Positions 5,901 to 24,273 are shown, counted from the stretch's first letter. The stretch: 64,000 nucleotides of DNA from Candidatus Thorarchaeota archaeon (GCA_011364905.1 RDNZ01000002.1:102910-166909), one strand, 5' to 3'. Translations and numbers: made by a program. Notes: generated from the letters alone by a model not told the origin.

Positions 5901-8900
5901 ATCTCAGTCCCATTGTACCATGAAACATCTATCTCCACTGGCGTTCCTCTTAGTGGTGCGCCTGTCCAGTCCAACACAAGCGCATTAATGCCCAGTGTTG
6001 TTCCCTGACTCACTGGTTGTCCAGGGAGGCTGAGAAGTAGAGTGGTTCTACCTAGAGCCAACGTCTGTGACTGATTGTTGATTCCAAGTAGCCATCCCTG
6101 TGCGGGGACAGACACTATTACTATGAGGTTTCCTGGCGAGTCGATGCTCAGCACAAAGTCAACCAAACCTTCCCCTGTTGTAGTATTCATCGAATCAAGA
6201 ATTGTGATTCCATCCAGTGTAACAAGAGTGTTTATAGAAGCACCTGAGATAGCCTGGGAGTTGGAATCCTCAATTGAGACCGTTAGTGTTGTTGAGCCTG
6301 GGGCAATTGGATCTTGTCCCATCTGGATTAGGACAGTTGGTTTCTCGTATACATCCACAGTCCCATTGGAGTCACTCGCCACGAGGACTCCATTCCTCTC
6401 GAAATGAAGATTGAAGGTGTACTGACCTCTGCTGATTGGAGTCCAGCTGAAGTAACTAAGACCATCAACAGACATCATCGTATCTGTGTGAATGATGCTC
6501 ATCCCCTCATCCCAGATGGTAAGGATGACCGCCTGTCCTGCGATGGCTGATCCATTGGACTTCAAAAGAAGTGAAAAGGGAATCAAGCTCTCATTCCCGA
6601 CTCCTCCAACCAGTGTAGAAGTTGATGAGATTTGAGTATCAACTGGTTGTGCGATGGATACCGTCTGCCAGACTACGAGATTGTCGAAACCACTCTTGTG
6701 CATAGTGACGATGAGGTTGTAGGGGCCAGCACCCAAATCATCGGTTGGTAGTGAGAAGTCATAAGGGCTTTCAGCAGTGGAGGCCAAGTCATTGAACCAA
6801 GAGCCATTAGACAAACGGATGTTAATATCAGTGGCTCCTACTAATCCTCCTCCAGACAAAGTCCATGACACAGTTCCAGAGATGAGGTCGCCCCTGACAA
6901 CATTCGGAGTTTGCAGTATGAGATCACCTTCTATAGAACCGTGCACATCAATCGAACCCCCATCAAAAGCCCGTATGGCACCCAGATCCCAGACCATAAC
7001 GGAAACATCCTGAATCCCTATTGCATTCACATCTGACAGAATAACAATGGACAACATATCTGAATTTGCAATGTCTTCGAACAGGATCCATGAGTCAAAG
7101 GCTCGAACATAAACAGAGTGTGTTGTTCGTTCCGAGTTGATTGAAACAGCGATATCTAGTGAGTCCCCGAGCTGCGCAGTGGAGGGTATCGAGATGGTGA
7201 GAGAGCAACCTTCTACCGGGACCATTTGAGGCCGAAGACCAAGAACGGACACCATGTCCAGTACTCCTGCTGTGTAGACGGGTTGCCAAATGGTTGACGA
7301 GTTGAACCAACCTTCTGTAAAATGAGTTCCAAGTGCTCCAAGGACCGAGCTCCGATTAACTGCATGCAAGCCTACAGGAAATGTGGTATTCAAGAGAGCA
7401 AGTGTCTTGATATCCCAGCTAAGGGCCCAAAGATCAGTATACTGCAAACGTGAGTTGATTGCGTTGGCAATCTCATTTGCCATAACAGGCGTAACGAGAT
7501 CAAGTCTCAAAGCTGCACGGGTGCACAAGAAATCTATGGCGGATTGTACTCCTGCAAAAGGTGCAAGGTCCCAACCTGCCGCGTTCCATCTTCCTGAGGA
7601 GTAGAGAGAGAGTACCGAAGACTCCAACGCAGACCGATACCACATCGTATCAAGCTCATCTAACTGGTATAATGCTTCCACCGCTGCCACTGTGTATTGC
7701 ATGTGTTGTGTGCCCATGACAGAGGGACGATACTGACCTCCAGTGTCCTGTCTGAGTGAAAGATATAGGGTGATATATGAAACCTGACTCGGGGAGAGAA
7801 CTATCTCATTATCGCCTGCAAGACAGGATCCAAAGTACTGTGCCCACACACCAGTGAGATAATACTGTTGATTATCATACTCGGGAGCACCCAGAACTGT
7901 GAGGTTTGATTGACCGGGATATTGAGTCAATGCGGTTCCTGTGAATCTACTAAGATAGTCGTCCAGTAAATAGTAATCCGGTTTACCAGAATGAGCCAAA
8001 CGATTTACCTCGGCTAACCAATAGGACCACATGAGTGAAGGTATTTCTTCCATAGCCTCAAAACCAGCATGACTCTGGATTCCGTTAATGTAAGCGAGGA
8101 CTCCACTTGCCAATGGACTTGTTGTTTCTCCTAGCTCTTTCAGACTCGTAGCTACTTCGGTTGCAGCCCAGGTTTTACCGACAATGTCTTGTGAGGATTC
8201 ACCCATGCCGAAACCTCCAGAGGGTAGTTGATTTGCAGTGAGCCAGTTCAGCCCTCCAGTTTTGTTTGATGCTGTTAGAGTCCCTAGGATTGACATGGTC
8301 GTAAGGGCAGAGGAAGTCCCTCTAGTGACATACATGTCAGCACTGACTGTATCTCTAAAAGAACCATCGCCGTTAGATGTGTCCTGAATCCACTCGGTTA
8401 GCTTAAGTGGATCAGTGTGGGCTTTCCCCAACATCCAGAGAGATTGAACATATTGAGAAGAATAGATGTTTCGTGCCTCTCCAGTTGTAGGATTTTTGGC
8501 TACTCCCCCCCAGTTATCAGGCGTTCCTGTACTTCCATCCACGACGCAAGACCTGAGCCAAGACTCCAGGGAGACCCTATTGATTTGATTGAGGCCTCCG
8601 CTCTCATAAAGGGATTCGGTCACGTGATAGGTCACTGTCATATGATTTGAAAATCCACCTTCAGAATCTTGCTGTGAACTTAGCCAAGCAGAGAGCTTGG
8701 TAACACTGAACTGTGATTCCAGACTCATCACTGAGGTGAGCCAGAGACCCATTGCAGTGGAGTCCTCAGAAATTACTCCGTCGTAGATTGACTCGGTAAA
8801 ACCGGCCTCTGATCCTGAATCCACATAGAGGTTCTGGAGAACAGACTGAACGAGTAATTGATTGTCATACTGCCAACCGCTAAAAGTTCCAGTATCCAGC

Positions 8901-9790
8901 AAGTCGCGGACTGCGTGTACTGCCAGATATGTGCTTGATATGCTCGGAGTATGAGAATAGTGCAGCCCTCCAGCCAGCGTCAGTCCCTGCTTAGACTGTT
9001 TTGCCTGCAAGAGACTTGCAAGAGAGGTTTCTCGCAATGCGGTACAGTATGCAAGTGTGTTCACAAGGAGACCCTTCCCATCCCCTGTCCACTGAGCAGG
9101 GTCTTCTGGGCCAAATAGGAACACATCGAGAGGCCAAGAATCATAACGCAATGGAGAGAGAGCTGCGGGTGTGGTGGTTCCCGTGAGATCTATCAACCGA
9201 GACCGTTCAGCCTGCACTTCATCCACGGGCAGATTCAAGCCGCTCTCCATGGTGAGGAGCGAACCAGGGGTGAGGCTTATCGGTTGAGAGAGGAAGACTG
9301 CTTCTTCGTACTCGGGTGTAGTCTGCAGATGAGTACTAAGGCTTGCAGTCGATTCGGGTGGACTGGTCTGTCTTAGTCTATAAATGAGCCATGCGGCTCG
9401 ACCGACCAATATAGTGGGAAGGTCCAGTCGGACCAGAAGAGTGATGAACTCATCGCTCACTGCGGCTCCATCGTTGGACCCGCAACTGGCATCTACTATG
9501 AGAGCTTGTGCCTCATCGAGAAGAGAGGAGTTAGCCAGGATCTCGCTTACATTGTACTTTGCATGTGGAACATTATTATCACTGAGCAACGATGAGAGAG
9601 AAGAACCTCGTGGAACAATAGATGCTCCAGTGAGTTCAATGATGATATACAAACCCAGAGAAGTCGGAGTTCCCGCACTTGAAGAAGGCATCATTGGTTT
9701 ATTCAAAGTGACATCGTCATTCGTCACATCTGACACCCCAGAGATTGCCGGACTGCACATGACCCAGATCATGATAATGATAACAAACAA
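2927..9790 (-). CDS. 2287-aa cell-surface protein: signal peptide, prenyltransferase/squalene-cyclase-type alpha/alpha repeats, many Ig-like domains, C-terminal TM anchor
   Basis: Hydrophobic N-terminus; repeats WLSSQQDSEGGF, WIQDTSNGDGSF and WLTANQLPSGGF; beta-rich repeats ending in [YF]xG...[YL]xPS; C-terminal VVAGVPILGLIGFALRRR. Confidence 0.85.
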   Translation of the reverse strand: MFVIIIMIWVMCSPAISGVSDVTNDDVTLNKPMMPSSSAGTPTSLGLYIIIELTGASIVPRGSSLSSLLSDNNVPHAKYNVSEILANSSLLDEAQALIVDASCGSNDGAAVSDEFITLLVRLDLPTILVGRAAWLIYRLRQTSPPESTASLSTHLQTTPEYEEAVFLSQPISLTPGSLLTMESGLNLPVDEVQAERSRLIDLTGTTTPAALSPLRYDSWPLDVFLFGPEDPAQWTGDGKGLLVNTLAYCTALRETSLASLLQAKQSKQGLTLAGGLHYSHTPSISSTYLAVHAVRDLLDTGTFSGWQYDNQLLVQSVLQNLYVDSGSEAGFTESIYDGVISEDSTAMGLWLTSVMSLESQFSVTKLSAWLSSQQDSEGGFSNHMTVTYHVTESLYESGGLNQINRVSLESWLRSCVVDGSTGTPDNWGGVAKNPTTGEARNIYSSQYVQSLWMLGKAHTDPLKLTEWIQDTSNGDGSFRDTVSADMYVTRGTSSALTTMSILGTLTASNKTGGLNWLTANQLPSGGFGMGESSQDIVGKTWAATEVATSLKELGETTSPLASGVLAYINGIQSHAGFEAMEEIPSLMWSYWLAEVNRLAHSGKPDYYLLDDYLSRFTGTALTQYPGQSNLTVLGAPEYDNQQYYLTGVWAQYFGSCLAGDNEIVLSPSQVSYITLYLSLRQDTGGQYRPSVMGTQHMQYTVAAVEALYQLDELDTMWYRSALESSVLSLYSSGRWNAAGWDLAPFAGVQSAIDFLCTRAALRLDLVTPVMANEIANAINSRLQYTDLWALSWDIKTLALLNTTFPVGLHAVNRSSVLGALGTHFTEGWFNSSTIWQPVYTAGVLDMVSVLGLRPQMVPVEGCSLTISIPSTAQLGDSLDIAVSINSERTTHSVYVRAFDSWILFEDIANSDMLSIVILSDVNAIGIQDVSVMVWDLGAIRAFDGGSIDVHGSIEGDLILQTPNVVRGDLISGTVSWTLSGGGLVGATDINIRLSNGSWFNDLASTAESPYDFSLPTDDLGAGPYNLIVTMHKSGFDNLVVWQTVSIAQPVDTQISSTSTLVGGVGNESLIPFSLLLKSNGSAIAGQAVILTIWDEGMSIIHTDTMMSVDGLSYFSWTPISRGQYTFNLHFERNGVLVASDSNGTVDVYEKPTVLIQMGQDPIAPGSTTLTVSIEDSNSQAISGASINTLVTLDGITILDSMNTTTGEGLVDFVLSIDSPGNLIVIVSVPAQGWLLGINNQSQTLALGRTTLLLSLPGQPVSQGTTLGINALVLDWTGAPLRGTPVEIDVSWYNGTEISSTIVYTGLDGTCSTSHQFVLIGDFWVRALYTGFGLNASVSDSVIQRVVVTPTMILTHGPTVNVGDSAEFLVGIQDNFGHYIGGKLLSFLIEMDGNTILQTQVSSVNGLVAIYWSPVNRGLAMISLTHVADTYYQGNSTESSMSVMEVVNGILGLNTSQIDLFGSVTLTYTLSSTSVVSGVDIVFQVLGMDLVPIWTEHILTDGSGIASVVYLADDAHGLLIVTAAPAEDQFMLGGDRQIDLTVMTYAHVVTDLSPEPPCVGQQTSVTVSVTDDLGLAIDGLRVRIYVYDIYLNLLFSLNRDTIDGYAHVEFTPTQWGAYRVGVSSTGATSVHGFTETGPDTHTVYCPTTLILSIENANIEVGDTLTVAARLDNVYGNPLVGMSVNLSVDGARNLGSVSQVTNESGYISWNIVIDEQGYWTVRADFFGLATYLPDSDSMVAHSTYGTSVILELQNDADIIAGLVPLNVTVLLVDSGGTPLEGRTIQWEAHHNLQGLVVSGSFIQPGVEPEVVVILLLRGGNYTVIFSFAGSDHYHSSNAALEISVKGTSTIVLDGPASIDRASEDNLTVCVIDELGTTLDTAKLNVEITLTNSSGLVDIVSWFVEDEMNLSLYGLEVGDYTLNITIIESTSRTGSVLIIPLKVTTQSKIESVTAILSGIINQKHSVTFRLADSLNDTMADMTLWVSLYRPDGTEIYGILGDMTPVGLVDGLATISWTPSWTGNYTLVVRYIGDEWRLPTVWELAILTRRPTTFTTDALEPVDYGVPVQIEAALTSSLSTLGGTDVSIIVILKQDVVLERIVVTNSRGIASTTLDGLLAGEYVVRIYYAGTESLAPCAVDLHLKVRPLVSFALDLQTEPYVNSNCTLKLFSTIQGVNTDWTGTLTIALYDPQGSLLLNKTSSIGANVDLMLHTVLEMEGQYTIRVRILGLPITMMAESELQFMSTQVPLKIPLDAGTTPVVAGVPILGLIGFALRRRIRGTIDGLPTEWGG

Positions 9791-9801
9791 TCCTTTGGTC
9801 C

Positions 9802-10041
9802 TCAGCTCAAATCCCTCCAGTGGTTTTTACGGGATGTAAGGAGCATCTTCGATGTCACGTTCGAGTCCAATGGTTCATAGACCAATTCCTCAGCAGGGTG
9901 CTCAGGCTCGGACTTAATATGAGTAGAGAGGGATAGATGACTCTGAGAAGAGAGATTGGATTTGAGGGTGGGAGAAAGAAGAGCCACGCAATCTATCCGA
10001 GCCTGAACCTGATTCTCCTTTTCACTATTATACAAATTCAT
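9802..10041 (-). CDS. Possible small protein (79 aa)
   Basis: ATGA overlap with the upstream gene and a GGAGGTG RBS; fills the gap to the large gene. No recognisable family. Confidence 0.4.
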   Translation of the reverse strand: MNLYNSEKENQVQARIDCVALLSPTLKSNLSSQSHLSLSTHIKSEPEHPAEELVYEPLDSNVTSKMLLTSRKNHWRDLS

Positions 10042-10637
10042 GCACCTCCACCCGCATACATAGTATAGTAAATGAAACCAAGAATCATAATGAATCCAAT
10101 GAACTCAATAGCGCCGCTTCGAGGCTTATTCTTCAAGGCAGCCACTACAAGAGAGAGGTCTCCGGACCGCAAGGAGCAGTTGAAAAGAATCCCGAGAGCC
10201 ACCCACCAGAATACGAAAATCCAGAGTGGTTCCACATAGATCATTACGGGTAAGACTATCAAAGCAAATGCTGCAAAGACTGCAGCCACAACGTTCAGAA
10301 ACAGGACAATGAGTACAATGCCTACTCTAGGTGGTCTGTCGACCTTGAGGAATACATTGATCTCGCCATAGGTTGATGAACTTCCAACATCTTCGACATC
10401 AACCCTGAATCCCTTGGCAATAAGAAATCGTATCCCCATATAAGCGAGGGTTCCCGGAAGGAAGACAATAGTAAGAAACGTCATGAGCTTGTTTCTTGTC
10501 CAGTCCTCGAACTCGCGTTTCTGCCCAGACAACAACAGTAGGCCTCTCAGGATTGTGGCTCCAATGATTACATAGGGAGTCACACTGAATGAGAAGAACA
10601 GATTGGCAAGCATCAACGTTCCAATGTCAGATTGCAC
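10038..10637 (-). CDS. Membrane protein resembling M50-like zincin peptidases but lacking HExxH
   Basis: About 5 TM segments; FLPGTLAYMGIRFLIAKGFRVDV aligns to the PGxxxHExxH pattern; downstream SGD. Confidence 0.6.
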   Translation of the reverse strand: MQSDIGTLMLANLFFSFSVTPYVIIGATILRGLLLLSGQKREFEDWTRNKLMTFLTIVFLPGTLAYMGIRFLIAKGFRVDVEDVGSSSTYGEINVFLKVDRPPRVGIVLIVLFLNVVAAVFAAFALIVLPVMIYVEPLWIFVFWWVALGILFNCSLRSGDLSLVVAALKNKPRSGAIEFIGFIMILGFIYYTMYAGGGA

Positions 10638-10987: not shown

Positions 10988-11974
10988 TTACACAAAGCTT
11001 TCCAGTGTTGTCTGTGTGTTACCAAACATTTTCCATATATGCACCAGCTCACGGGTTTTGGCTTCTGCCCTATCCTTCCCCATTGCAGGTTGGAGAAGTC
11101 TGACAAGTCTCGGAGTTATGAGCGGCTTTAAGGTTAGGTCCACGCCCTTTGCACTCATAAATGAGGCTTCGTCAAAAACCTCTCTGGCCTCGATGTAGTC
11201 CTCTCTTTCAGACAGTTTCAGACCTCTTGCTTTCAGCAAATATCTCAGACCGCCATATCGTTTCAATTCAATTGCACCTTTCCGTGGTCCGAGACCCTTG
11301 ATGCCTTTCTTATGAAAGTCACATCCGCAAACTATTGCTAGGTCTCGAAGCAGTTCAAGATCAAGGTCCAAAACTCGCTCCAGCTCACTAAGGGTTGTGT
11401 ACTCCATGGTCCCCTTGGACAACTGAAGACTCTTGATGACGTGAGGACTGCCGAATAACAGGGCATCAGCGTCATTGGAAACCACAGAACCTACTAGACC
11501 CTCTCGACACAGGACTGCACCAAACATCTCTGCCTCGGATGGCGATGTAATTGCGGGTATCCCTGCTGCACGACAAAGGTCTTTGACGTGATTGACTGCG
11601 AAGTACATCCTAACAGCAGGACTCTCTCTTAGTGACTCTACAATCTTAATGTCGTGTGTGTCCTGCTTGATGAGAAACCGTTCATATAGCATGTGAGCTG
11701 TAGTTATGAGTTCAGGATTCGGTTTACGTTTCAGGGATTCAGGCGGTCCATCGAAAAATAGCGCTGGAAGAATATGGCGTTTAAGCGCTTGACGAATCAG
11801 TCCAAAGGTTATGTGAATATGTGCCATGGGTATCTTGTTCGATGAGATCGGTCGAATGGTGGACAACCTGCGCATCAAATAGTTGGGAGCATCGACTGCA
11901 ATTTTGGGAGTGAACAGCTCTGAAACATTGGCCCACTTCCATGGCACCAGGTTCTGCCAGTTTTTCACTCCCAT
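10988..11974 (-). CDS. FEN1/XPG-family 5' nuclease (FEN1 paralog) with C-terminal PIP box
   Basis: MGV start; IAVD, FFDG, SEAE, SNDADALLFG and GCDF acidic active-site motifs; H3TH GIKGLGPRKG; C-terminal QTTLESF. Confidence 0.9.
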   Translation of the reverse strand: MGVKNWQNLVPWKWANVSELFTPKIAVDAPNYLMRRLSTIRPISSNKIPMAHIHITFGLIRQALKRHILPALFFDGPPESLKRKPNPELITTAHMLYERFLIKQDTHDIKIVESLRESPAVRMYFAVNHVKDLCRAAGIPAITSPSEAEMFGAVLCREGLVGSVVSNDADALLFGSPHVIKSLQLSKGTMEYTTLSELERVLDLDLELLRDLAIVCGCDFHKKGIKGLGPRKGAIELKRYGGLRYLLKARGLKLSEREDYIEAREVFDEASFMSAKGVDLTLKPLITPRLVRLLQPAMGKDRAEAKTRELVHIWKMFGNTQTTLESFV

Positions 11975-11979
11975 TCCAA

Positions 11980-12699
11980 TCAACCCGTTCCTTTGAGAGT
12001 CCTCGCTCCCTTGAGTCCCAGCCGCACCACCACTGGATCTGGTAGTGGATGAACAGGACTTCGTTCCACTTGTACTCTGAGACCATCAGCTGCCATATTC
12101 ATGCTTGCTATATGGACTGTTGTGTCCACGCCATGAGCAATCACATTCCCGCCAACTGGCTTCAGAGCGCCAGTGTCCCAGTCCCTGCTTGAGTGATCAG
12201 TCAAGGCAACATGAAGATCATTGTCATTCACTAGTATACGAAGAATCTCCAATGTGTGCTGAAGCGCACGCTGCCTACCCTTAGATCCGATTCTACCACT
12301 CAGGTTAAGGATGCCTGTGAGACTATCCACTGCGACTACTCGAACGTCCCTCATGCAGCCTATCCCCTGTGCTAGTTCCTGCAGGTCCGAAAGCTCAAGC
12401 ACCTGTCCCACTATCACATTTCTCAGCAGCTCAGCTTCCTTTCCAAGCAAGGCACGGGTGAGAGGTGAGCTAAAGTTATTCCCAGAATCGATGAATACAC
12501 TCCGTCCTCCATTGAGAACACCACCAACAACAATTGCATGAGCTACAGTGGTCAGAGGTTTTCTCTCTGAGCTATGTATCAGACTGATTTGGTTTGGTAG
12601 TATCACTTGTCCCAGAGTCTCATCCAATGGTCGTGGTCGTAACCGAACCAGTGATTCCTCATGAACTGGTATGTTATCAAGCGGTAGACTCTCCGGCAA
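11980..12699 (-). CDS. RadB/Rad51-paralog-like RecA-fold protein with degenerate Walker A
   Basis: LDETLG, SVFIDSGNNF, VVAVDSL and PVGGNVIAHG motifs; the P-loop is replaced by HSSERKPLT. Confidence 0.8.
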   Translation of the reverse strand: MPESLPLDNIPVHEESLVRLRPRPLDETLGQVILPNQISLIHSSERKPLTTVAHAIVVGGVLNGGRSVFIDSGNNFSSPLTRALLGKEAELLRNVIVGQVLELSDLQELAQGIGCMRDVRVVAVDSLTGILNLSGRIGSKGRQRALQHTLEILRILVNDNDLHVALTDHSSRDWDTGALKPVGGNVIAHGVDTTVHIASMNMAADGLRVQVERSPVHPLPDPVVVRLGLKGARTLKGTG

Positions 12700-13666
12700 C
12701 CTCTACACCTCCCATCGATAATTGCGCAATATCACGACCAAGTAGAACGTGAGCCTCTCGACCATGTGGTAGCTGTTCGAGGTCGAATCCCGGTGCGGTA
12801 TCACTTTTGATGACTACTCGTAACCCCGTTCTGTTTGGAAACACGGTGATACGATTAGGCCACATCTCAATAAGTTTCTTCACGGTGCTTTCCTCAACAG
12901 CCACCTTATACTCATTCAATGTCATGCCTATATCATCCTCCATTAGTGGAAGACTGAGTATCGCATTGGTCATGAAAAGTGAGAGAACCTGCAAGCTTTC
13001 AGCTCCCTTCTCAGCTAGTGCTTGCTGGACTTGTTTCAAGACCTTCTCTTCTCCTTCAGTTCGTACAATCAAGATGTCGCATTCTTCGTATCTTGTGATT
13101 GACACCGGAAGGAGTGGTCGTTCACGAAGAAGATCTAGGACTACTGCCCTCATACTATTCGGAAGGATTATTGCCTTCATGTTGAGCTTGTCAATGGACG
13201 TCCAAAATCTGCTATGTGAAACTGAACTCCGTCCTAGTATTGGAATCGAATGTCCAAAGGACGCCATTGGCTCCAGAAGGGCAGAAAATCGCTCCGTGAT
13301 GCTACCAGGCTCTTTTATTCTGCTACAACCGATAATAGTTCCACCCATTGCGAGAAAAGCAGCAATCAATCCAAATGGTAATACAACAAAGAGCATCACG
13401 ACTCCTGTATAGACGATGCAAGCCCATGAAACCACATTGAGTAAAAGGGACAGTGGTTCCTTGGTTTCCCTGCGGGCGATAAAGAGCATAATGATGGTTC
13501 CTCCCCAAACAATGACAAGAGGCTGAATATTTCCTAGCCGCCATGCTAGGACCACAGAAGCAACAGAACTCAGTAGCTGCCCACCCAGAAAAAGAGCAAC
13601 CGCTCCCGCCAGAGCATATACCATTAAGCGGAAAATTGACTTTCCGAACATTCGCTTCTCCTCCAT
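12677..13666 (-). CDS. Membrane protein (about 4 N-terminal TM segments plus a soluble domain)
   Basis: Hydrophobic N-terminal 115 aa; overlaps both neighbours. Confidence 0.75.
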   Translation of the reverse strand: MEEKRMFGKSIFRLMVYALAGAVALFLGGQLLSSVASVVLAWRLGNIQPLVIVWGGTIIMLFIARRETKEPLSLLLNVVSWACIVYTGVVMLFVVLPFGLIAAFLAMGGTIIGCSRIKEPGSITERFSALLEPMASFGHSIPILGRSSVSHSRFWTSIDKLNMKAIILPNSMRAVVLDLLRERPLLPVSITRYEECDILIVRTEGEEKVLKQVQQALAEKGAESLQVLSLFMTNAILSLPLMEDDIGMTLNEYKVAVEESTVKKLIEMWPNRITVFPNRTGLRVVIKSDTAPGFDLEQLPHGREAHVLLGRDIAQLSMGGVEVAGESTA

Positions 13667-14280
13667 TCTTGAGTTGGTACTGATAGTCGGACAACTCCTT
13701 TGATATCGATCATCATTCTTGCCAATGGGTTCCCATCAATCAACAATCTGGAGTCCCTCTCCAGGCTTCTCACTACCCGAATGTCCACTGGTTTCCAAAT
13801 CAGAATTGATTCGTGCATCACTGGTGTAACTCGTTCTTCCAGACTGCGAACTTCACTCACAAGGACAACCTTTACTCCTCGCTCCGTTAGAGCAACCAAT
13901 GATGGTAGAGCATTCTCGATCAAATCCCGACCCCACATTATCTCTTCGCGTCGAGTCATGTCAAGCACCCGTGTTATGGGGTCTACTACAATTAACGATG
14001 TGTCATCTGGAAGCATCTCACAGACTGAGAGTATGCCCTCTTGTACCTCTTTATGTCCATTGAAAATGTTCACAGTGATTTTGCTGCTGTTTTTTGTATT
14101 GGATTTCAAAGCTCTCACAAAGGAGCGTTTTCCATCAGCACAGATCCATCTCACAATACCGTCTCTTGCAGCTTCTGCAGCAAGGGAGCAGGCTAGTAGG
14201 GTCTTCCCAGATCCAGCCTCACCCCAGATATGGAAAAGGTCGCCCATCCTCAACAAAACTTTAGCCCCCAGTACTACCAC
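13624..14280 (-). CDS. RadB/Rad51-paralog-like RecA-family ATPase
   Basis: Walker A GEAGSGKT, Walker B LIVVD, VVLVSEVR; lacks the RadA N-terminal domain. Confidence 0.85.
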   Translation of the reverse strand: MVVLGAKVLLRMGDLFHIWGEAGSGKTLLACSLAAEAARDGIVRWICADGKRSFVRALKSNTKNSSKITVNIFNGHKEVQEGILSVCEMLPDDTSLIVVDPITRVLDMTRREEIMWGRDLIENALPSLVALTERGVKVVLVSEVRSLEERVTPVMHESILIWKPVDIRVVRSLERDSRLLIDGNPLARMMIDIKGVVRLSVPTQEWRRSECSESQFSA

Positions 14281-15943
14281 GCTCCTTCTTTCGGGTGGGA
14301 AAGTGAGTCCGTGATGATGAGCTTGTCACACTGTGACGCTGGAGTTTGCTTCGTTTAACAACCTGCTCACTGGTCTCATCCTCTGCAGCAAGGAGAACTT
14401 GGACCGACTCCGCTGGTTCTTCATCGACTGTCTTGGCAACGACCATAGGTGGGTCTGCAAACTCCTTTCTCGTCCGATCTGGTTCTTTTATGACCCTATC
14501 ATTTGCTCCAGGGACTTCCTCTGTGTTTCCCATCACCTGCAAAAAACTGTCGAGTTCATCTTCACTCTCTGCACTAGCCGGAGCCATTTCCTCTCTTACA
14601 GGAGGTTCCTCCGGTTCAGCAAGATCCTTGTCAATCTCCATGACAATCTTTTTACTGGCATGAAGGTTGAGGATATCATCAATCCTGTTTTTCACTTCGG
14701 GACTCAGAGCACCAACATCAAAGAGAGCGTTGTTAAGAACTCCAAGGTGTCCGATAATCTCATGTTCCTTCAAAGGTGTGCTGCTATGTCCGGTAAGGCC
14801 AACATACGCTAGACCGAGAGCTTCTTCCTCACCCTCCCCGAATTCTAACCCGATGTTCTTGAATAAGCTCAAGAATTTTTCAAGACCAGGATCACCAGAG
14901 AGATTAGGCATTTCGACAGTGCTAGTAGGAGTAAGCCTTACGCATTCATCTAATATTGTAAACAGGGAGCCCACTGATTTGTTGAAATCGCCAGTTTCTA
15001 TAGATTCGGCAGCACTATCCATCAGCGGGGTCACTATGAAGTTTAGTGTGCCAACGAGTTCAAGTCGGTTAGCATTCTCCATTATTGAAGATGTGACCCG
15101 GTTAGAATCTCCAACCTCAGACAAAGCAGAAACCTCTTCATTTAGAGCACTACGAAAGCTGCCTATTGCAGTGTTTGCTCCCTGGAGCATCCATGAACCA
15201 AGCAGAAATGATATGCAGAAAACGACAAGCGGGAAGATTAGTGTTCCATTATTCAATAACGCGCCTGCAATGCCGAACCCAGCCATCACCCCCATGACAA
15301 TACAGAGTATACCGAGCCAAGACCTCCTCAGACCTGTTTCTAAATCATCCCACTTAGTGGAGCTCACATTCTTCTGAACATCATGCAAGTGAGATCGAGA
15401 GTCACTACTTAGCAGGAGTCCAAGTTCATTATCAGGTAAGATACGGGATGAATCAGTAAGCCACGATAAGTCTCTACGAGAGCTGCCCTCCTTGTATACA
15501 GCGTAGATAGTACGAGTTTCATGAATTAGGGATGATGATTTCGAATCAATGGACCTCATAACAGAGAACTCCACTCGCCCAAATGACGATAGGAGAGACC
15601 TCGCCTCGAACGCGTCCAGTAGTCCTACATCTTTGAGGATGCTCTTCAAGGACCCATTGACACTTTCGAGTATTGCGGCTTGCATAGCCAGAGTGGAGCG
15701 ACCAAACCTGGCCTTCTTCAGGTCAAGTACATAAGCAACATCTACATAGACGCCCCTGGTTCCTGGAATGCCAACCAGTCGCACTCCCAAGACCAACCCA
15801 TTGGGATATTCTGCTGTTCTATGACCCGCTCCTTCTAGCACTCGAACAACGTCCGTGGTGGCCCGCTCCAAACTTGTGCCAATGGACGACTCACTCTCTT
15901 CTTCCTCAGTGATTTTTTCATCATCAACTGCTGTCATTAACAT
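14261..15943 (-). CDS. 560-aa protein with two central TM helices and an acidic, disordered C-tail
   Basis: TM pair at about aa 209-255; coupled within the operon. Confidence 0.75.
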   Translation of the reverse strand: MLMTAVDDEKITEEEESESSIGTSLERATTDVVRVLEGAGHRTAEYPNGLVLGVRLVGIPGTRGVYVDVAYVLDLKKARFGRSTLAMQAAILESVNGSLKSILKDVGLLDAFEARSLLSSFGRVEFSVMRSIDSKSSSLIHETRTIYAVYKEGSSRRDLSWLTDSSRILPDNELGLLLSSDSRSHLHDVQKNVSSTKWDDLETGLRRSWLGILCIVMGVMAGFGIAGALLNNGTLIFPLVVFCISFLLGSWMLQGANTAIGSFRSALNEEVSALSEVGDSNRVTSSIMENANRLELVGTLNFIVTPLMDSAAESIETGDFNKSVGSLFTILDECVRLTPTSTVEMPNLSGDPGLEKFLSLFKNIGLEFGEGEEEALGLAYVGLTGHSSTPLKEHEIIGHLGVLNNALFDVGALSPEVKNRIDDILNLHASKKIVMEIDKDLAEPEEPPVREEMAPASAESEDELDSFLQVMGNTEEVPGANDRVIKEPDRTRKEFADPPMVVAKTVDEEPAESVQVLLAAEDETSEQVVKRSKLQRHSVTSSSSRTHFPTRKKERGSTGG

Positions 15944-18104
15944 TCCTCCCTAATCGCTCTTCTATTCCCCCAAGGAGCCCACTGCTCAGTTCCACGAGTC
16001 TTGAGAGACCCCCTAATCCTGCAAGCACAACAATGCTGGCTAGCAACCATCGTGACCTCTCCAGTAGACTATATGCATCCCCCACTGGAATACCAACGTT
16101 CTCTGAAATGTCTCTTATGGACATAGAAGTGGTAGCGGCGGCACCAATCAGGTTTTCAAACGACTCATCAAGCTCGGAAACAGACTCCATCGACACAAGA
16201 TGCCTTACGAGAGAGAGAAGCGAAACAGCATCCTCTGTGAATGGCATCATGGCCATTAGCTCTCGTATCGTCCTCATGCGGAGATACAGCCTATTCACTG
16301 TCCTTCCGAGTCTTGTGATCTTGAAAGCGCCTTCCTTGCTTCCCTCAATGAGCCCCAATCGTGATAATGCACCTGTGGGACTAGACTCTTCCATGGCGAT
16401 GGGCACGATGTAGTTCGCTAGAGGTCGTATCTTTTCATTGCGTGATGCCTTGAGTCCGAGAGAAACCAGATGCATACAAAGGATACCAGTTTCATCCAAT
16501 GGATTACCACATGAACAACTTGCACCTTCTACAGTGCCACTGGTCTGGAGTCGGGTGGAGAACCGACAGGTGAAGCTCCCACCTTGAAAACCTGAAACTA
16601 TTCCTCCGAGGACATCCTCGCTGGTTTCCCTGATGCTGACGGAGCCTAGTGCGTCTTTTCTTGCAGCCTGAACTGTGTCAGGCAGGGCATGTTTCTCAAT
16701 AACCGATTCCGCTGAGATCTCTCCGAGATGTAGGGGCCTCATGGGACTTCTAACATCTCTCACCGCGCAGAACACGAGATAAGACTCGCTCATTATGTCC
16801 TCCATCTGTTTCACTGTGCTCTCATTCATGGTGTCAAGAAGGACAAGAATTTGCTCGGTAAGCGATGCCGCTGAACCGAGCCTACTCCTCACTCTTTCAT
16901 ATCGAGGAATCAGGGTTTCACCAACCTCATCAAAGTATCTGCGCTTCACAAGCTCGCACTCACCTCTACTACTAGTGAGGATGACACCAAAGCCCATAAC
17001 ATCATGTCCAGGTCTCCCCGCACGTCCAAGCATTTGATGGACTGTGTTAGCAGAGAGCATCTCTCTATGATCCTCCGGCGAACGACAACTGGTGAGCACA
17101 ACGGTACGAGCTGGGAGATCCATTCCTGCAGCTAGGGTAGATGTTGCACAGATTACACGTAACATGCCTTTTCTGAACAAGCGCTCCACCAAAGCTCTGA
17201 CACTCGAGCTGAGTCCAGCATGGTGGAATCCTACGCCATTATGCAAGACTTTCCGTAGGGGCGCCGGAACTGTCATGAAGGATGTTTCTACAGAGTTAAT
17301 TTCATCGTCCAGGGCTTTTCGCTCAATGGAACCAAGTTGCCTAATCACATTTTCAGACAATCGTTCAGCCTCAAGTTCAGCAAACCTTCGGGTTCTGTGA
17401 AAGGTGATGACTTGACCGTTTGCCTGCACTACCGTCATCACTGTTTTTTGGACTGCTCGGGCCTTATCGGGTGTGTGGACTACCTTACAGACAAGCGGAA
17501 CAGGACGCTCATCAGATGCAACAAGTCCGCAACCAAGCCATTCCGCTAGTTCATCTGGGTCCTTAACTGTGGCTGAGAGTGCTACTATCTGCAGGTCGTC
17601 AATGCTTCGTTTCAAACGAAGGATAGTGCTTTCTAGTCTTGCTCCTCGTGTCGAGTCCGAAAGGTTTTGGACCTCATCTATGACCACTGTTCCGACCTCT
17701 GGAAGCCACTCCACCTGGTGTCTCAACAGAGAGTCTGCTCGTTCATAGGTGGTCACAATGATGTCGTATTCTGCCATATCCTCTCCTGAAAGATGCAGGT
17801 CACCGGTAGTCACTCCAATTCTGATGGCATTTTCTTGGTACCGCTCTCTCAGAACTCGTGTTATCTGATATGCCAGAGCTCTTAGGGGTACCAAAAACAA
17901 GCCTCTTCGACCATTGAAAATCGATCTAAGCAGGCCCATCTCCCCCACCAATGTTTTTCCCGATCCTGTTGGAGCACTCACCAATATACTGGCCCCATCA
18001 AGAAGACCCTTGTCAATTGCCTCAGTCTGAACACCCCTTGGTGTGACACCAACTTGCTCTAGCATCCGAGTGACACTTGCAGGGATATCAGTGACAGACA
18101 TCAT
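15924..18104 (-). CDS. hel308: Hel308/Ski2-like SF2 DNA helicase with an inserted SWIM zinc finger
   Basis: APTGSGKT, PLRALA, DEVQ, LSAT, FHHAGL, TSTLAAGMDLPA and QMLGRAGR; SWIM motif CSC-x10-CMH. Confidence 0.9.
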   Translation of the reverse strand: MMSVTDIPASVTRMLEQVGVTPRGVQTEAIDKGLLDGASILVSAPTGSGKTLVGEMGLLRSIFNGRRGLFLVPLRALAYQITRVLRERYQENAIRIGVTTGDLHLSGEDMAEYDIIVTTYERADSLLRHQVEWLPEVGTVVIDEVQNLSDSTRGARLESTILRLKRSIDDLQIVALSATVKDPDELAEWLGCGLVASDERPVPLVCKVVHTPDKARAVQKTVMTVVQANGQVITFHRTRRFAELEAERLSENVIRQLGSIERKALDDEINSVETSFMTVPAPLRKVLHNGVGFHHAGLSSSVRALVERLFRKGMLRVICATSTLAAGMDLPARTVVLTSCRSPEDHREMLSANTVHQMLGRAGRPGHDVMGFGVILTSSRGECELVKRRYFDEVGETLIPRYERVRSRLGSAASLTEQILVLLDTMNESTVKQMEDIMSESYLVFCAVRDVRSPMRPLHLGEISAESVIEKHALPDTVQAARKDALGSVSIRETSEDVLGGIVSGFQGGSFTCRFSTRLQTSGTVEGASCSCGNPLDETGILCMHLVSLGLKASRNEKIRPLANYIVPIAMEESSPTGALSRLGLIEGSKEGAFKITRLGRTVNRLYLRMRTIRELMAMMPFTEDAVSLLSLVRHLVSMESVSELDESFENLIGAAATTSMSIRDISENVGIPVGDAYSLLERSRWLLASIVVLAGLGGLSRLVELSSGLLGGIEERLGRNVNDSS

Positions 18105-20452: not shown

Positions 20453-20722
20453 CTAGGTCCTTCCCCCTTGTCTTGCCAAGACTTTCAACATCATCTTAAT
20501 GCGAATCAGCATTTTCTGATCTGAAGAGTTCACCACTAGTGAATCGTTCATAATGACCAGCTCAGGATGCTCATGCTTCGAAGGATGCCCGAGTACCATT
20601 AGAACTGGCTCCTTGGATACAGTTGTCCAAGTGTATCCATGGCCCCGTTTCAGGAAGTCCATCACCGCGTCAGCCTCCACACCTGATGGAATGTTTAGTG
20701 ATACATCCTCACCCACTGACAA
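20453..20722 (-). CDS. Small hypothetical protein (89 aa)
   Basis: Translationally coupled on both sides. Confidence 0.7.
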   Translation of the reverse strand: MSVGEDVSLNIPSGVEADAVMDFLKRGHGYTWTTVSKEPVLMVLGHPSKHEHPELVIMNDSLVVNSSDQKMLIRIKMMLKVLARQGGRT

Positions 20723-21302
20723 CGCCTCCTGTGTTCACCAGTTGCATCTCGTAGAGTCCTGCACGCTCCACAGGTGTATGAGGATAGGATGAACGCATGG
20801 CACTCTCTAACGTTGTCACATCATCAAACACCTTCTCAGCCAACATCCTGATTATGCGTGCCCCATTCCAAAATCGGAGAGACCGTCTGACAACCTGCAT
20901 ACCAACCAGCGTTGAGTTGTCATCCAAAGGGCGACACACGAAGAACCGAACCTCACATTGACTCTCTTTCTTGAACTGCTCACTCATAGCTCTCAGTACC
21001 TGTTTGGCTGCGTGCGAAACATCAATCCCCAAGGGTACGCTAGCCAGTAAGCAACCTGCTTGAACCTCTACAGTCCAATTGCGACGAATGGCCATGGTGC
21101 CGGTTGCCTCATCCCAGAATACAACGACGGGTCGTTTCCATAAAACGAAGAGAGCGATTACTAGAGACGCTAAACCAATCCCAACCAAGGTCTCGAAAGC
21201 AAATCTTCCTTTGGGGTCCATGATGATTCTAGTTGACCATGCCGCCAGAACAGCAGCTGGAACAGTCCATTTCACCCACTCATAATCCTGGTAATTCCTC
21301 AT
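20709..21302 (-). CDS. Membrane protein with 2 N-terminal TM segments
   Basis: Two hydrophobic segments followed by an alpha/beta domain; GGAGG RBS. Confidence 0.75.
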   Translation of the reverse strand: MRNYQDYEWVKWTVPAAVLAAWSTRIIMDPKGRFAFETLVGIGLASLVIALFVLWKRPVVVFWDEATGTMAIRRNWTVEVQAGCLLASVPLGIDVSHAAKQVLRAMSEQFKKESQCEVRFFVCRPLDDNSTLVGMQVVRRSLRFWNGARIIRMLAEKVFDDVTTLESAMRSSYPHTPVERAGLYEMQLVNTGGVVSG

Positions 21303-21305
21303 TCA

Positions 21306-23243
21306 TCACACCCTCCTCACAAACATCCCGATGGCGTCTCGCAGCTCATCCTCTCCTCTGTATGGCCAGAGATCTGCGGCTGTGTCCTCTCCGAATACGT
21401 CAATGTGTTTCAAGAACCGCTTGTCTAATAGCACAACTATGCCTTGATCCTCCGGTGACCTCCTGAGTCTTCCTGCCATTTGTGCAACTTTTCGTATTGA
21501 TGGTACAACCACAGCATAATAGTACCCTGAGCCAGCTCCGTATCTTCGATCATAGAAGTCCTGCAACGCTTTTTGATGACTTGTCGGAGGACTGAATGGT
21601 ATCCCCACACCAATAATGAGGTCCACCATGCTAGACCCCGCCTCCACCAAGTCTACTCCTTCGCTCACCTTTCCACCATAAACACAGAACAAGGCATGGG
21701 GCTGCGAGGCGAGAGCTTCCTTCACATCATCAATTCTACTGCGTCTATCCTCAATAAGACGCTCTCGAAATCCTGCGTTTACTCCAAAACTCAAGACATC
21801 TCGCATGATTGCATAGCTCGGGAAAGCAATCATGGCGCTCTTGTTGGCGGGAACTGCCTCGAGTACGGTTTCGATCCTCTCACTCAAAGTACGCCAAAGG
21901 TCAGGTCCTCTGGACTTGTAGCTTGTTGATACTTCTCTGTCCACTAGAATGAGCCTTGTTCCTCGTGGATAGGGACTGGAAAGTTCCTCACCTTTTGCAC
22001 TACCAATTCCAAGTATTCGTTTGTAGTGAGAGAGTGGTCTCAGAGTTCCAGACATAAGGAGCGAGGAGCGTGCCATCCTGAGTATCGGAGCAATTAGTCC
22101 AGCAGCATTCAGTGGACGAATCTTCAGGATAACGCGCATGATGTCTTGGTGCTCCTCCCAGCCGGTTGACTTCTCAATGGTGACCAACCAGTCATCACTC
22201 TCGGTAGCTTTTCTTCCAGCATAGAGGAAAGACACTAGTCGATCCACTGGTGTGTCAACAGGGACAGTCTCATCCGCACCTTCAAGCAGAGTACTATACT
22301 CGATGAGCTGTTCCAAATCGCCTTGTGCAGCAAAACGCGGATAAGCGTCCCACTTGTCAAGACATCGTTCGTCCTTCAATGTGTCGAGATTCACCGAAAC
22401 GGTCTCCCAAAGAAAATCGACTGTTTCCTCCAACCAACGCACACCAGTTTCTTTGACGATGTCGCGCTTGTGCTCTCTGAGCCATAGCAAGTCAGCCCCA
22501 CGCAGCTCCGCAGCCTCAGCCTCTAGAACATGAGATGAGAGGTTATGAGCCTCATCCACAAGGATGTCAATCTCGTACAAGCCAATTCCTAGCGATGAAA
22601 GAAGGGCCATTTGGACACGGCTTCTAAACAGGTAGTCATAGGGACCAACAATGACTCTACTTTTCTTAGCGCACCATCTAAGCACCTCGTAGGGACACAT
22701 ACCATTGTCACGGCCAACATCCTCAGCTACCGACTGACTCACGACATTGTCTTTGAGGAGCTCATCTATAGTTTCTAGGAATGCCTGACGAGGTTGATGT
22801 CGTCCATCAGCATTTCTTCTGTAGCAATTCCAATAATAGGTGCAGTTGCCCGTTTTGACAAGGGCTGCGCACTCACGCATGAAACCCAACGAAGAAATAT
22901 GCCTCATCTGACCCTTCATGGGACACACGTGTTTCCTAGAAACCATGCTGGTAGCTGTAAGCAGTGTATCCTGGGTGTAGATGCGTAATTGTGTGAGTTC
23001 TTCCTCGAACACCTTTGATTGCGAGTGAGTTCGGGTAAGCACGAGTAATCGTGACTCAGGATCATTCACACGTGCAGCCAAGTAACCGGACAGAGCCGCA
23101 ATGGTCTTTCCGATTCCGCAGTCGGCAGAGAGTAGACCCACCGTTCCCTCAGAGAATACTTCCTCTGCATATCGTAATGCGCGTTCTTGGTGCGGTCGTG
23201 GCTCATAGGGGAACCAGTCCATTGGGTCAGGTAGAGTTGCCAT
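21306..23243 (-). CDS. xpd: XPD/Rad3/DinG-family Fe-S DNA helicase
   Basis: Q motif PYEPRPHQ, CGIGKT, four Fe-S Cys (VCP...EC...NC...MCPY), DEAH, SGTL, SEGVD and QMAGRLRR. Confidence 0.93.
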   Translation of the reverse strand: MATLPDPMDWFPYEPRPHQERALRYAEEVFSEGTVGLLSADCGIGKTIAALSGYLAARVNDPESRLLVLTRTHSQSKVFEEELTQLRIYTQDTLLTATSMVSRKHVCPMKGQMRHISSLGFMRECAALVKTGNCTYYWNCYRRNADGRHQPRQAFLETIDELLKDNVVSQSVAEDVGRDNGMCPYEVLRWCAKKSRVIVGPYDYLFRSRVQMALLSSLGIGLYEIDILVDEAHNLSSHVLEAEAAELRGADLLWLREHKRDIVKETGVRWLEETVDFLWETVSVNLDTLKDERCLDKWDAYPRFAAQGDLEQLIEYSTLLEGADETVPVDTPVDRLVSFLYAGRKATESDDWLVTIEKSTGWEEHQDIMRVILKIRPLNAAGLIAPILRMARSSLLMSGTLRPLSHYKRILGIGSAKGEELSSPYPRGTRLILVDREVSTSYKSRGPDLWRTLSERIETVLEAVPANKSAMIAFPSYAIMRDVLSFGVNAGFRERLIEDRRSRIDDVKEALASQPHALFCVYGGKVSEGVDLVEAGSSMVDLIIGVGIPFSPPTSHQKALQDFYDRRYGAGSGYYYAVVVPSIRKVAQMAGRLRRSPEDQGIVVLLDKRFLKHIDVFGEDTAADLWPYRGEDELRDAIGMFVRRV

Positions 23244-23245
23244 CC

Positions 23246-23833
23246 TTATTCCCCCAGGTACAGACAGTTCTCGGCATTATGTATTCTGAACTTTAGAGAA
23301 AAGTAGGAGCGAAGCAACAGATGGAATGTCTTTGCCGCTGCTGGCGAGTTGAAACCGTTCTTTTTGCCCACCATGCTTTCCAGTATCTGAGGGCTGAAAC
23401 CTCTTCTGCGAGCTTGTCTCCAGAAGGTTCTCTCCACCTCCTCTACTGTGGCTTTATAGAAGTCAAGTGTCTGCTTCACTACTCGTTGGAGATACTGCAC
23501 AGCCTCCTTGGCCCTATGAGGGATCTCTGATACCTTCGTTTCAGTGGGGAGATAGACCGCCATACCTTCCCTGCTTTCAAGGTACACCTCCGAAGGTACA
23601 CCTCTGGTACCACGTAGAACCTCAAGATGAGACAGAAGTCGCGGCAGCTGCGAGAGGGTAGGTCTTGCTCTATCTCGCCAATCCACCGTCGTGACCACAT
23701 ATAATTCTGGGTCAGGTTCGTGGTAAGCAACTGGAACGGTGGTCAGTCTGTGGGATGTATCACGCATTAAGAGGTTGGTCATGTTTATGACAGATGCATG
23801 GGATTGATACGCAGGAGGCAGAACCACTGCCAT
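23246..23833 (-). CDS. Hypothetical protein (family Y; distant paralog at 36500)
   Basis: Coupled in the operon; weak motif match to 36500..37252. Confidence 0.75.
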   Translation of the reverse strand: MAVVLPPAYQSHASVINMTNLLMRDTSHRLTTVPVAYHEPDPELYVVTTVDWRDRARPTLSQLPRLLSHLEVLRGTRGVPSEVYLESREGMAVYLPTETKVSEIPHRAKEAVQYLQRVVKQTLDFYKATVEEVERTFWRQARRRGFSPQILESMVGKKNGFNSPAAAKTFHLLLRSYFSLKFRIHNAENCLYLGE

Positions 23834-24273
23834 CAGTATTCGTCCCCCACTGCTTTCAGAATCCCATCCATGTTCACAATTAAGTCCTCGTCCTCCAGCT
23901 GGTCTAAGAACCTAACAGCCTTGTCGATTTCGATGCCTGCTTCCTCGCACTCTTGAAGGACCCTATCACGACTCACTCCTGTTCCACGATTCAAGTCACT
24001 GAGGTCAGACACTATATTCAGCACGCGCTTCTTGACACCAAGACCATGTCTCGACTTGGACCTATGCGTAGTTGGTTTCCTCCAGACAATCCTCTGTATC
24101 TCTAGAAGAGCTCCCTCAACTGAATCGACATACTTCCAATCAGGACTAGGCTCGATTCTTCTGGAACAGAGATTGCACTTTGATTCCTCATCCTCACTGT
24201 ACACAGTAGCGTATCCGGTATAGCCGCAATGAGGACACATGAAGATTCTGTACATCTGTTCCTTTGAGGTCAC
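23833..24273 (-). CDS. Zn-ribbon plus C-terminal winged-helix protein
   Basis: CPHC...CNLC; the C-terminal VSRDRVLQECEEAGIEIDKAVRFLDQLEDEDLI resembles an MCM C-terminal-type WH domain. Confidence 0.75.
   Translation of the reverse strand: MTSKEQMYRIFMCPHCGYTGYATVYSEDEESKCNLCSRRIEPSPDWKYVDSVEGALLEIQRIVWRKPTTHRSKSRHGLGVKKRVLNIVSDLSDLNRGTGVSRDRVLQECEEAGIEIDKAVRFLDQLEDEDLIVNMDGILKAVGDEY

Follow-up and report, generated by a model that had tools for sequence, protein, structure and literature searches.

Background

Zinc fingers of the SWIM type carry the signature CxC-xn-CxH, in which n usually lies between 6 and 25. In the archaeal helicase Hel308, the winged-helix domain serves as the substrate-recognition domain, and in the enzymes studied the C-terminal domain 5 acts as a brake on ATPase activity and unwinding and supports strand annealing (PMC13623763). 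A phylogeny of Ski2-like helicases places the eukaryotic HELQ and POLQ with Hel308 sequences from Asgard archaea (PMC10946056). Neither of these two papers mentions an insert in Hel308, and our literature search found no paper joining SWIM with Hel308 or with Asgard archaea. Here we describe a Hel308-family helicase of a Candidatus Thorarchaeota archaeon that lacks domain 5 and carries, within its winged-helix domain, an insert that appears to be a SWIM-type zinc finger. Its gene lies in a stretch of 64,000 nucleotides (GCA_011364905.1 RDNZ01000002.1:102910-166909), hereafter the window, from whose first letter all coordinates are counted, and belongs to a row of genes that also encodes two small paralogs of RadA.

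The helicase and its insert

The helicase gene and the parts of it discussed here are the following:

15924-18104, minus strand: predicted SWIM-type Hel308 paralog of 726 amino acids, with domains 1-4 and the SWIM insert, without domain 5
16359-16757, minus strand: insert of about 130 residues (residues 450-582) in the winged-helix domain, separating the helices of this domain from its beta wing
16470-16517, minus strand: CxC-x10-CxH signature (residues 530-545), CSCGNPLDETGILCMH in translation
15945-16358, minus strand: C-terminal half of the winged-helix domain and the ratchet domain 4, where the protein ends

The putative zinc-ligand motif, CSC-x10-CMH (C530-S531-C532-x10-C543-M-H545), is the most conserved feature of the insert. 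The 23 orthologues of alignment A1, with 50-82% identity, all have C530, S531, C532 and C543, and at least 90% of them have H545. The four ligands are also invariant in a set of 17 sequences that reaches down to 27% identity (A2), where they are the sole invariant polar residues; apart from them, only glycines and one leucine are invariant across this set. Four arginines (R482, R492, R514 and R518) are invariant in the Thorarchaeota orthologues, but not in the wider clade.

Folded alone, the insert gives a model with a predicted local distance difference test (pLDDT) score of 87.3, in which two helices are followed by a four-stranded sheet, the CxC knuckle and further helices. In the models, strands at 488-530 lead to the CxC at 530-532, and a helix runs from 544 with the CxH at its start. 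Structural comparison left the insert unaligned to any solved Hel308, Brr2 or POLQ chain. An exhaustive structural comparison with the PDB returned a sole fold outlier, a chain of ZSWIM8 (9rwz_M; Z 6.0, root-mean-square deviation 3.7, 90 residues, 21% identity), with the next matches at Z 3.5 or 2.8. The match spans chain residues 114-216; the SWIM domain of ZSWIM8 comprises residues 172-208 (PMC13083262). From sequence conservation and the predicted structure, we conclude that the insert is in all probability a zinc finger of the SWIM type whose beta-sheet base is enlarged.

The remainder of the protein has the Hel308 fold. At the sequence level, the NCBIfam Hel308 models align to residues 6-445 only, with 344 bits for PRK02362 and 300 bits for NF040935, which do not reach the equivalog cut-offs of 887 and 1200, respectively. 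An AlphaFold2 model built on the 23 orthologues of A1 (pLDDT 87.3, predicted template modelling score 0.85) superposes on solved Hel308/Hjm structures (VIA) with Z scores of 34.1 (9b15_A), 33.5 (2zj8) and 33.2 (2p6r_A). These superpositions cover 563-587 of the 726 residues at 29-31% identity and include the winged-helix domain 3 and the ratchet domain 4. ATPase motifs I (APTGSGKT), III (SAT), IVa (FHHAGL) and VI (QMLGRAGRPG) are present and conserved. Motif II reads DEVQ (residues 143-146; 17667-17678, minus strand), as DE[VI]Q in most Thorarchaeota orthologues; it is DEIH in the Loki-type relatives (from Promethearchaeota and Hermodarchaeota) and DEIH or DEVH in the canonical Hel308 of Thorarchaeota.

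Towards the C-terminus, the superposition on solved Hel308/Hjm reaches no further than chain residues 632-660, ahead of domain 5, and there is a weak alignment to Pfam Helicase_dom4_arc and Hjm at residues 664-705. The protein ends, ...IEERLGRNVNDSS, immediately after the last helix of domain 4. After this point, the Loki-type relatives have about 70 further residues, which form a helix-hairpin-helix (HhH) domain 5 (EELFDL..VGRVRxRI..AGYHT). A tblastn search with the Loki-type domain 5 found no detached copy of this domain in the window. An earlier note on this DNA, made from the sequence alone, had located the gene with correct coordinates and lengths, and had proposed both a SWIM motif in the post-helicase region of a Hel308 and the absence of the C-terminal HhH domain. 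The first of these proposals is borne out by the invariant ligands, the ZSWIM8 fold match and the ranking of Pfam SWIM as top family in homologues; the second agrees with a sequence that stops after domain 4 where both the Loki-type and the canonical Thorarchaeota Hel308 have a domain 5. The change to a DExQ box coincides with the loss of domain 5.

Outside the window, the same genome encodes another Hel308-like paralog with a SWIM module (G000:C40:3088-5300; L004/L053), as an open reading frame (ORF) of 733 amino acids with a textbook motif, CSCESWKYQGIRRHRLCKH. Its insert is the only SWIM match in this genome above the Pfam cut-off (20.9 bits in a six-frame search, 16.7 bits as a protein). 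The paralog is present in most genomes of the Thorarchaeota family to which the window belongs. Its orthologue at L039 has degenerate versions of ATPase motifs I, II, III and VI, which makes the 733-residue paralog look like a pseudo-helicase scaffold.

Distribution of the insert and of canonical Hel308

We refer below to three genome families: f1, the Thorarchaeota family of the window; f2, its sister family in the same order, with one genome; and f22, a large family that we read as Loki-type. Of 400 Asgard genomes searched with the insert profile, 200 gave a match, comprising 83 of 85 in f1, the one genome of f2, 89 of 135 in f22 and scattered others. A profile search of a protein database returned 476 clusters, and the following statements cover the best 120 of these. 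Where a Pfam domain has been precomputed for a cluster, it identifies a DEAD/DEAH helicase, the named clusters are all Asgard (Thor-, Loki-/Prometh- or Hermodarchaeota), and a precomputed Pfam SWIM domain is present in none.

The Loki-type SWIM-Hel308 is about 845 amino acids long, has the motif as CxC-x20-CxH, and keeps both DEIH and domain 5. All Hel308 matches at E <= 1e-40 are of the SWIM type in size and score in four Loki-type genomes, among them G149, G185 and G207, which are 100% complete. The situation in Thorarchaeota is different. A canonical Hel308 (586-627 bits, matching model positions 3-678) is found at another locus in near-complete relatives of the window's genome: G362 from the same genus, G313 and G336 from the family, and G311 from the order. 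Those of G362 (C6:85601-87670, L060; 622 bits) and G311 (C12:20958-22997, L061; 627 bits) are full-length; they have DEIH/DEVH and an HhH domain 5 of the GIGR type, and they lack CxC..CxH. The window helicase scores 312 bits against the Loki SWIM type, in an alignment that extends across the insert, and 227 bits against the canonical Hel308 of Thorarchaeota, and so is nearer to the former.

As near-complete relatives hold a canonical Hel308 without the insert, we regard the window helicase as a second, specialised paralog. The idea that it is the sole Hel308 orthologue of its genome was dropped, the canonical Hel308 standing at another locus in these relatives. The SWIM insertion defines an Asgard-wide helicase clade, which appears to be the only Hel308 in Loki-type genomes and coexists with the canonical form in Thorarchaeota.

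The gene row and its conservation

The helicase is encoded within a row of 14 tightly packed genes on the minus strand, running from 25777 down to 10988. Family assignments were made with Pfam and NCBIfam, and the label 'membrane' derives from a hydropathy scan only. In order of transcription, the row reads:

within 20453-25777, minus strand: gene for 146 amino acids, first of the row
24270-25340, minus strand: RadA (NCBIfam RadA, 4.7e-72)
between RadA and the 195-residue gene, minus strand: gene for 146 amino acids, zinc-ribbon-like, with paired cysteines
between the zinc-ribbon-like gene and XPD, minus strand: gene for 195 amino acids
21306-23243, minus strand: XPD (rad3/XPD, 5.3e-50)
after XPD, minus strand: putative membrane protein of 197 amino acids, with a hydrophobic segment
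between the 197- and 783-residue genes, minus strand: gene for 89 amino acids
18101-20452, minus strand: putative membrane protein of 783 amino acids, with a hydrophobic segment at 47-87 and a weak HerA-like signal
15924-18104, minus strand: the helicase described above
14261-15943, minus strand: putative membrane protein of 560 amino acids, no family, with a central hydrophobic segment at 207-256
13624-14280, minus strand: RadB-like RadA paralog of 218 amino acids, with Walker A (GEAGSGKT) and Walker B (VVDP) both intact
12677-13666, minus strand: putative membrane protein of 329 amino acids, no family, with an N-terminal hydrophobic region at 9-117 followed by a soluble domain
11980-12699, minus strand: RadA-core paralog of 239 amino acids, with a degenerate P-loop and the Walker B aspartate kept
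10988-11983, minus strand: FEN1/XPG-family nuclease, last gene of the row (XPG_I 1.6e-17, fen_arch 4.8e-30)

Genes overlap at nearly all junctions, by 4 to 43 nucleotides (for example at 18101/18104, 15924/15943, 14261/14280, 13624/13666, 12677/12699 and 11980/11983); the stop of the 783-residue gene overlaps the helicase start by 4 nucleotides, and the start of the 560-residue gene overlaps the helicase stop by 20. These overlapping stops and starts suggest translational coupling in a single long operon. Hydrophobic stretches long enough to span a membrane occur in four of the products.

Several products resisted family assignment. The 560- and 329-residue products have no Pfam family above cut-off (for the latter, only a sub-threshold DUF2768), and a search of the ESM Atlas gave no usable match for either. 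The 783-, 560- and 89-residue products, and the 199-residue product of a gene downstream of the row, have no match in Pfam or NCBIfam. A profile of the 783-residue protein (A5) gives weak matches to chains of the HerA family (E 0.016-0.26); at the P-loop position, this protein reads GGDWRDRK. The paired cysteines of the 146-residue product encoded after RadA suggest a zinc ribbon. RadA itself scores just below the NCBIfam RadA cut-off (242.8 against 259 bits) and ends in a long tail rich in lysine and glutamate, ...DDDEDEKKQKKGKKTEEEEQEE. Downstream of the row, at 2927-10637 on the minus strand, are the gene for the 199-residue polytopic membrane protein and that for a giant protein of 2287 amino acids with a signal-like N-terminus. 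In most relatives, f2 included, these two genes accompany the row in synteny.

The entire row is conserved gene for gene, at 23-60% identity, in at least 10 f1 genomes of several genera, and the gene order of its upstream part (20453-25777) is conserved in L037, L038, L040, L042-L045, L051 and L052. The row of the f2 genome (L046) contains RadA, XPD, a homologue of the 783-residue protein, the SWIM helicase, likewise without domain 5, and, downstream of the helicase, a homologue of the 560-residue protein (E 7e-7); the block of genes for the 218-residue, 329-residue, 239-residue and FEN1 proteins is absent from this cluster. The 783-residue gene is upstream of the helicase in both families. 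Since f2 keeps both the 783- and 560-residue genes and has no paralog block, it is these two genes, not the paralogs, that are the most constant neighbours of the helicase.

Outside Thorarchaeota the association is looser. A neighbourhood of 7-15 kb recurs at three Loki-type loci from two genera (L062:2626-16656, L063 and L064, in G276, G261 and G264). It contains SWIM-Hel308, a DUF1922 zinc ribbon, a Hef-like helicase, M50B-like and small membrane proteins, a P-loop protein of 227-235 amino acids and RadA, with FEN1 seen in two of the three genomes. The P-loop protein matches the 218-residue paralog in two of the three (E ~1e-6), and in the Loki-type genomes the M50B-like membrane protein adjoins the RadB-like gene. 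This suggests an old, loose link of the SWIM-Hel308 clade to RadA-family genes, and is silent on the zinc finger itself. In the RadA of L062, the HhH domain (HHH_5; residues 328-381) is C-terminal instead of N-terminal.

The two RadA-family paralogs

Both small paralogs align to the ATPase core of RadA only and have no N-terminal HhH domain. The 218-residue protein matches TIGR02237 (RadB) with E 4.4e-8, at 33.2 bits against a cut-off of 172.4, and a profile of 11 orthologues (A4) has as its best PDB match the RadB of T. kodakarensis (2cvf; E 2.9e-6, nearly full length). All 11 keep GxxGSGKT and the Walker B aspartate. In the 239-residue family, the P-loop is lost in 10 of 10 orthologues (consensus GPERAPLT) and the Walker B aspartate is kept. 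This protein matches Pfam Rad51 (E 9e-8) and RadB (E 1.3e-10, 41.5 bits against the same cut-off of 172.4), and the profile of its 10 orthologues (A3) matches RadA/Rad51/Dmc1 chains at ~1e-15, RAD51D at 6e-8 and RadB at 2e-7. Pfam KaiC gives E 0.005 for the 218-residue protein and no match for the 239-residue protein, and no KaiC chain appeared in the PDB searches with A3 or A4. The profile rankings thus indicate that both paralogs are of a RadA-core-only type, and not of the KaiC/aRadC type.

Orthologues of the 239-residue protein (E < 1e-60) are confined to f1. Outside this family, the best matches fall at 1e-23 to 1e-16; most of them are ORFs about as long as RadA (314-440 amino acids), and a few have 265-281 amino acids and may be short paralogs.

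The earlier note had described two RadB-like genes, one with an intact GEAGSGKT and one without a P-loop, and this pairing recurs across the 11 and 10 orthologues. It had also named a grouping with KaiC/aRadC clades as an outcome that would speak against its proposal; the PDB profile rankings favour RadA/RadB instead. The paralogs do not, however, directly follow the helicase as stated there: the order is helicase, 560-residue protein, 218-residue protein, 329-residue protein, 239-residue protein and FEN1-like nuclease, the 560- and 329-residue genes having been left out.

Possible roles of the helicase and its insert

Taken as a whole, the locus is probably best explained by a specialised second Hel308-family helicase of Thorarchaeota that carries a SWIM module and has no domain 5. 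The Hel308 ring of RecA1, RecA2, winged-helix and ratchet domains is kept, and this ring together with the intact ATPase motifs (with DEVQ for DExH) makes it most likely, by family membership, that the protein is an active 3'-5' translocase on single-stranded DNA. Because domain 5 is both the brake and an annealing element in the Hel308 enzymes studied, its loss in the Thorarchaeota branch would leave an unbraked motor without annealase function. Translational coupling in the 14-gene operon suggests that the helicase most likely acts in recombination or in the processing of stalled forks together with the products of the operon. By analogy with Shu2, ZSWIM8 and the arch of Mtr4/Ski2, the SWIM module would form a peripheral docking surface on the winged-helix domain, for which RadA-family proteins, membrane proteins and DNA are candidate partners. 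A protein adaptor is, in our estimate, somewhat the likeliest role for the module; contact with DNA is possible, and a purely structural role is improbable.

Several observations weigh against this explanation or parts of it. The insert of the window's own copy reaches only 8.3 bits on Pfam SWIM (PF04434; E 2.3), against a gathering cut-off of 19.6, and a Foldseek search of the insert against the PDB gave no match at E <= 0.001. With this low score and null search, the SWIM assignment rests on the homologues, the invariance of the motif and the one match at Z 6.0; and zinc binding by the insert is something that we infer. The effects ascribed to the loss of domain 5 would hold by analogy, being extrapolated from euryarchaeal and crenarchaeal enzymes. 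As for the status of a second paralog, the window's own assembly (80.8% complete) yielded no canonical Hel308, and two genomes of genus g15 (98-99% complete) have no Hel308 match above 300 bits; the window-type helicase may be the sole Hel308 in some lineages. Pfam SWIM is nonetheless the top family for four of the 17 homologous inserts (best E 4.9e-4), and in the Foldseek list ZSWIM8, at rank 19, has the highest probability. A search of PDB sequences with the A2 profile at E <= 10 gave a chance match only (E 0.92) and no Shu2, SWS1, ZSWIM8 or MEKK1.

The low Pfam score and the lack of a significant Foldseek match could also be read to mean that CxC..CxH arose by chance within a linker specific to the lineage, with no zinc finger at all. 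We find this scarcely credible, as the ligands are the sole invariant polar residues at such low identity, the insert folds confidently alone with a SWIM protein as its only fold outlier, and the insert of the 733-residue paralog passes the Pfam cut-off. A rather unlikely but more substantial alternative is that the SWIM module contacts nucleic acid and alters the substrate choice of the winged-helix domain, for instance towards branched DNA or a duplex arm, with no dedicated protein partner. It is in keeping with the winged-helix domain being the part of Hel308 that recognises substrate (PMC13623763), with the SWIM domain having first been predicted to bind DNA as well as proteins (as stated in PMC5727457), and with retention of the insert wherever the clade occurs, whatever the neighbours. 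The four arginines invariant within Thorarchaeota orthologues would suit such a contact, but they are not invariant beyond them. Less probable again is that the module docks the helicase to the membrane-anchored 783-residue protein (HerA-like, with a degenerate P-loop), to the 560-residue protein or to both, so that the operon would form a machine for DNA uptake or exchange at the membrane, coupled to recombination. The 783-residue, helicase and 560-residue genes, with overlapping stops and starts, are retained by f1 and f2 alike, four row products have transmembrane-length hydrophobic segments, and the 783-residue profile weakly matches HerA. Yet that HerA signal is weak indeed, Loki-type SWIM helicases occur without the 783- and 560-residue neighbours, and no pilus, secretion or DNA-channel gene was identified.

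The earlier note had offered a further explanation, in which the SWIM finger docks a heterodimer of the 218- and 239-residue proteins as Shu2/SWS1 docks Rad51 paralogs, the whole possibly being an ancestral HELQ/Shu-type module. A P-loop-intact and a P-loop-dead RadA paralog do share the operon with the helicase in 10 genomes, and xxS/A comes directly after the SWIM motif, comparable to the CxHxxA that ends the Shu2/SWS1 family motif (CxC..CxHxxA): the window reads CMHLVS and many orthologues C.HLVA. A small residue at +3 after CxH is common in SWIM domains generally. The Shu2 SWIM domain contacts the Rad51 paralog Shu1 (PMC5727457), HELQ binds BCDX2 (PMC13623763), and three Loki-type genomes have RadA and a small RadB-like gene at a distance of 7-15 kb from SWIM-Hel308. 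The distribution of the genes points the other way, however. The insert also occurs at loci without these paralogs (L046 of f2 and Loki-type genomes), Loki-type Hel308 with the insert keep domain 5, orthologues of the 239-residue paralog are found only in f1, and membrane-protein genes separate the paralogs from the helicase. With regard to the insert itself, its profile matches no Shu2/SWS1 sequence in the PDB, Shu2/SWS1 chains are absent from the fold matches listed for it, its best fold match is the SWIM of a ubiquitin ligase, ZSWIM8, and a catalytically dead helicase paralog elsewhere in the genome bears it as well. A complex prediction for the insert (A2) with A4, A3 and zinc scored 0.00 against a mark of 0.32, which gives no answer, neither for nor against. 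An insert present in 200 of 400 Asgard genomes lends no support to the claim that the SWIM module exists to recruit a pair of which one member has orthologues in f1 only; as the insert predates the paralogs and occurs without them, their recruitment is unlikely to be the reason for it. We consider docking of the heterodimer distinctly unlikely. More doubtful still is the broader scenario in which SWIM in Asgard Hel308 was the ancestral holder of RadA paralogs in a HELQ-type helicase, eukaryotes having split off Shu2/SWS1 while HELQ kept its RAD51-paralog link, and the Thorarchaeota operon preserving a proto-Shu/HELQ assembly.

What our preferred reading, a specialised second helicase with a SWIM module, brings to light is a conserved zinc-finger module in many Asgard Hel308 proteins that is unannotated in databases (best 120 of 476 clusters), with the Thorarchaeota copy constituting a natural deletion of domain 5 within a recombination operon. 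Three forms can be compared by biochemistry, namely canonical Hel308 and SWIM types that either have or lack domain 5, and such a comparison could reveal what the insert and the brake each contribute. If the insert docks RadA-family mediators, it would bear on the origin of the HELQ-RAD51-paralog and Shu connections; if it is not such a dock, it would be a lineage-specific accessory domain.

Comparison with known systems

Like euryarchaeal RadB (TIGR02237, 2cvf) and the RAD51 paralogs, the 218- and 239-residue proteins consist of the core only. They differ from RadB in scoring far below its cut-off and, for the 239-residue protein, in the missing P-loop and in orthologues limited to the Thorarchaeota family.

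The helicase shares its motor, winged-helix and ratchet domains with the Ski2-like SF2 DNA helicase Hel308/Hjm of archaea (2p6r, 2zj2/2zj8, 2va8, 9b15), with HELQ and with the helicase domain of POLQ, but differs from all of these in the SWIM insert, the absence of domain 5 and DEVQ in place of DEIH. The Loki-type SWIM-Hel308 has a homologous insert in the same position, with the invariant CxC..CxH, and shows 32% identity to it in an alignment that runs through the insert; in contrast, the Loki-type protein has domain 5, DEIH and the spacing CxC-x20-CxH, and lies outside the 14-gene row of Thorarchaeota. An accessory module in the winged-helix domain of a Ski2-like helicase is likewise known from the arch/KOW of Mtr4 and Ski2 (PMC10946056). 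These are RNA helicases, however, and the arch fold is not SWIM; the likeness is at the level of the domain.

Shu2/SWS1 resembles the insert in having CxC..CxH followed by a small residue at +3, and the insert too has RadA-family paralogs nearby, one of them P-loop-dead, but Shu2 and SWS1 are small stand-alone proteins, whereas here SWIM is internal to a 726-residue helicase. The SWIM region of ZSWIM8 (9rwz) provides the best and only clear structural match to the insert, one that covers residues 172-208. ZSWIM8 serves cullin-RING ligases as a substrate receptor, and its SWIM domain organises a dimeric E3 superdomain (PMC13083262), a function unrelated to that of a helicase; what ZSWIM8 has in common with Shu2 is the use of SWIM as an organiser of protein contacts (PMC5727457, PMC13083262).

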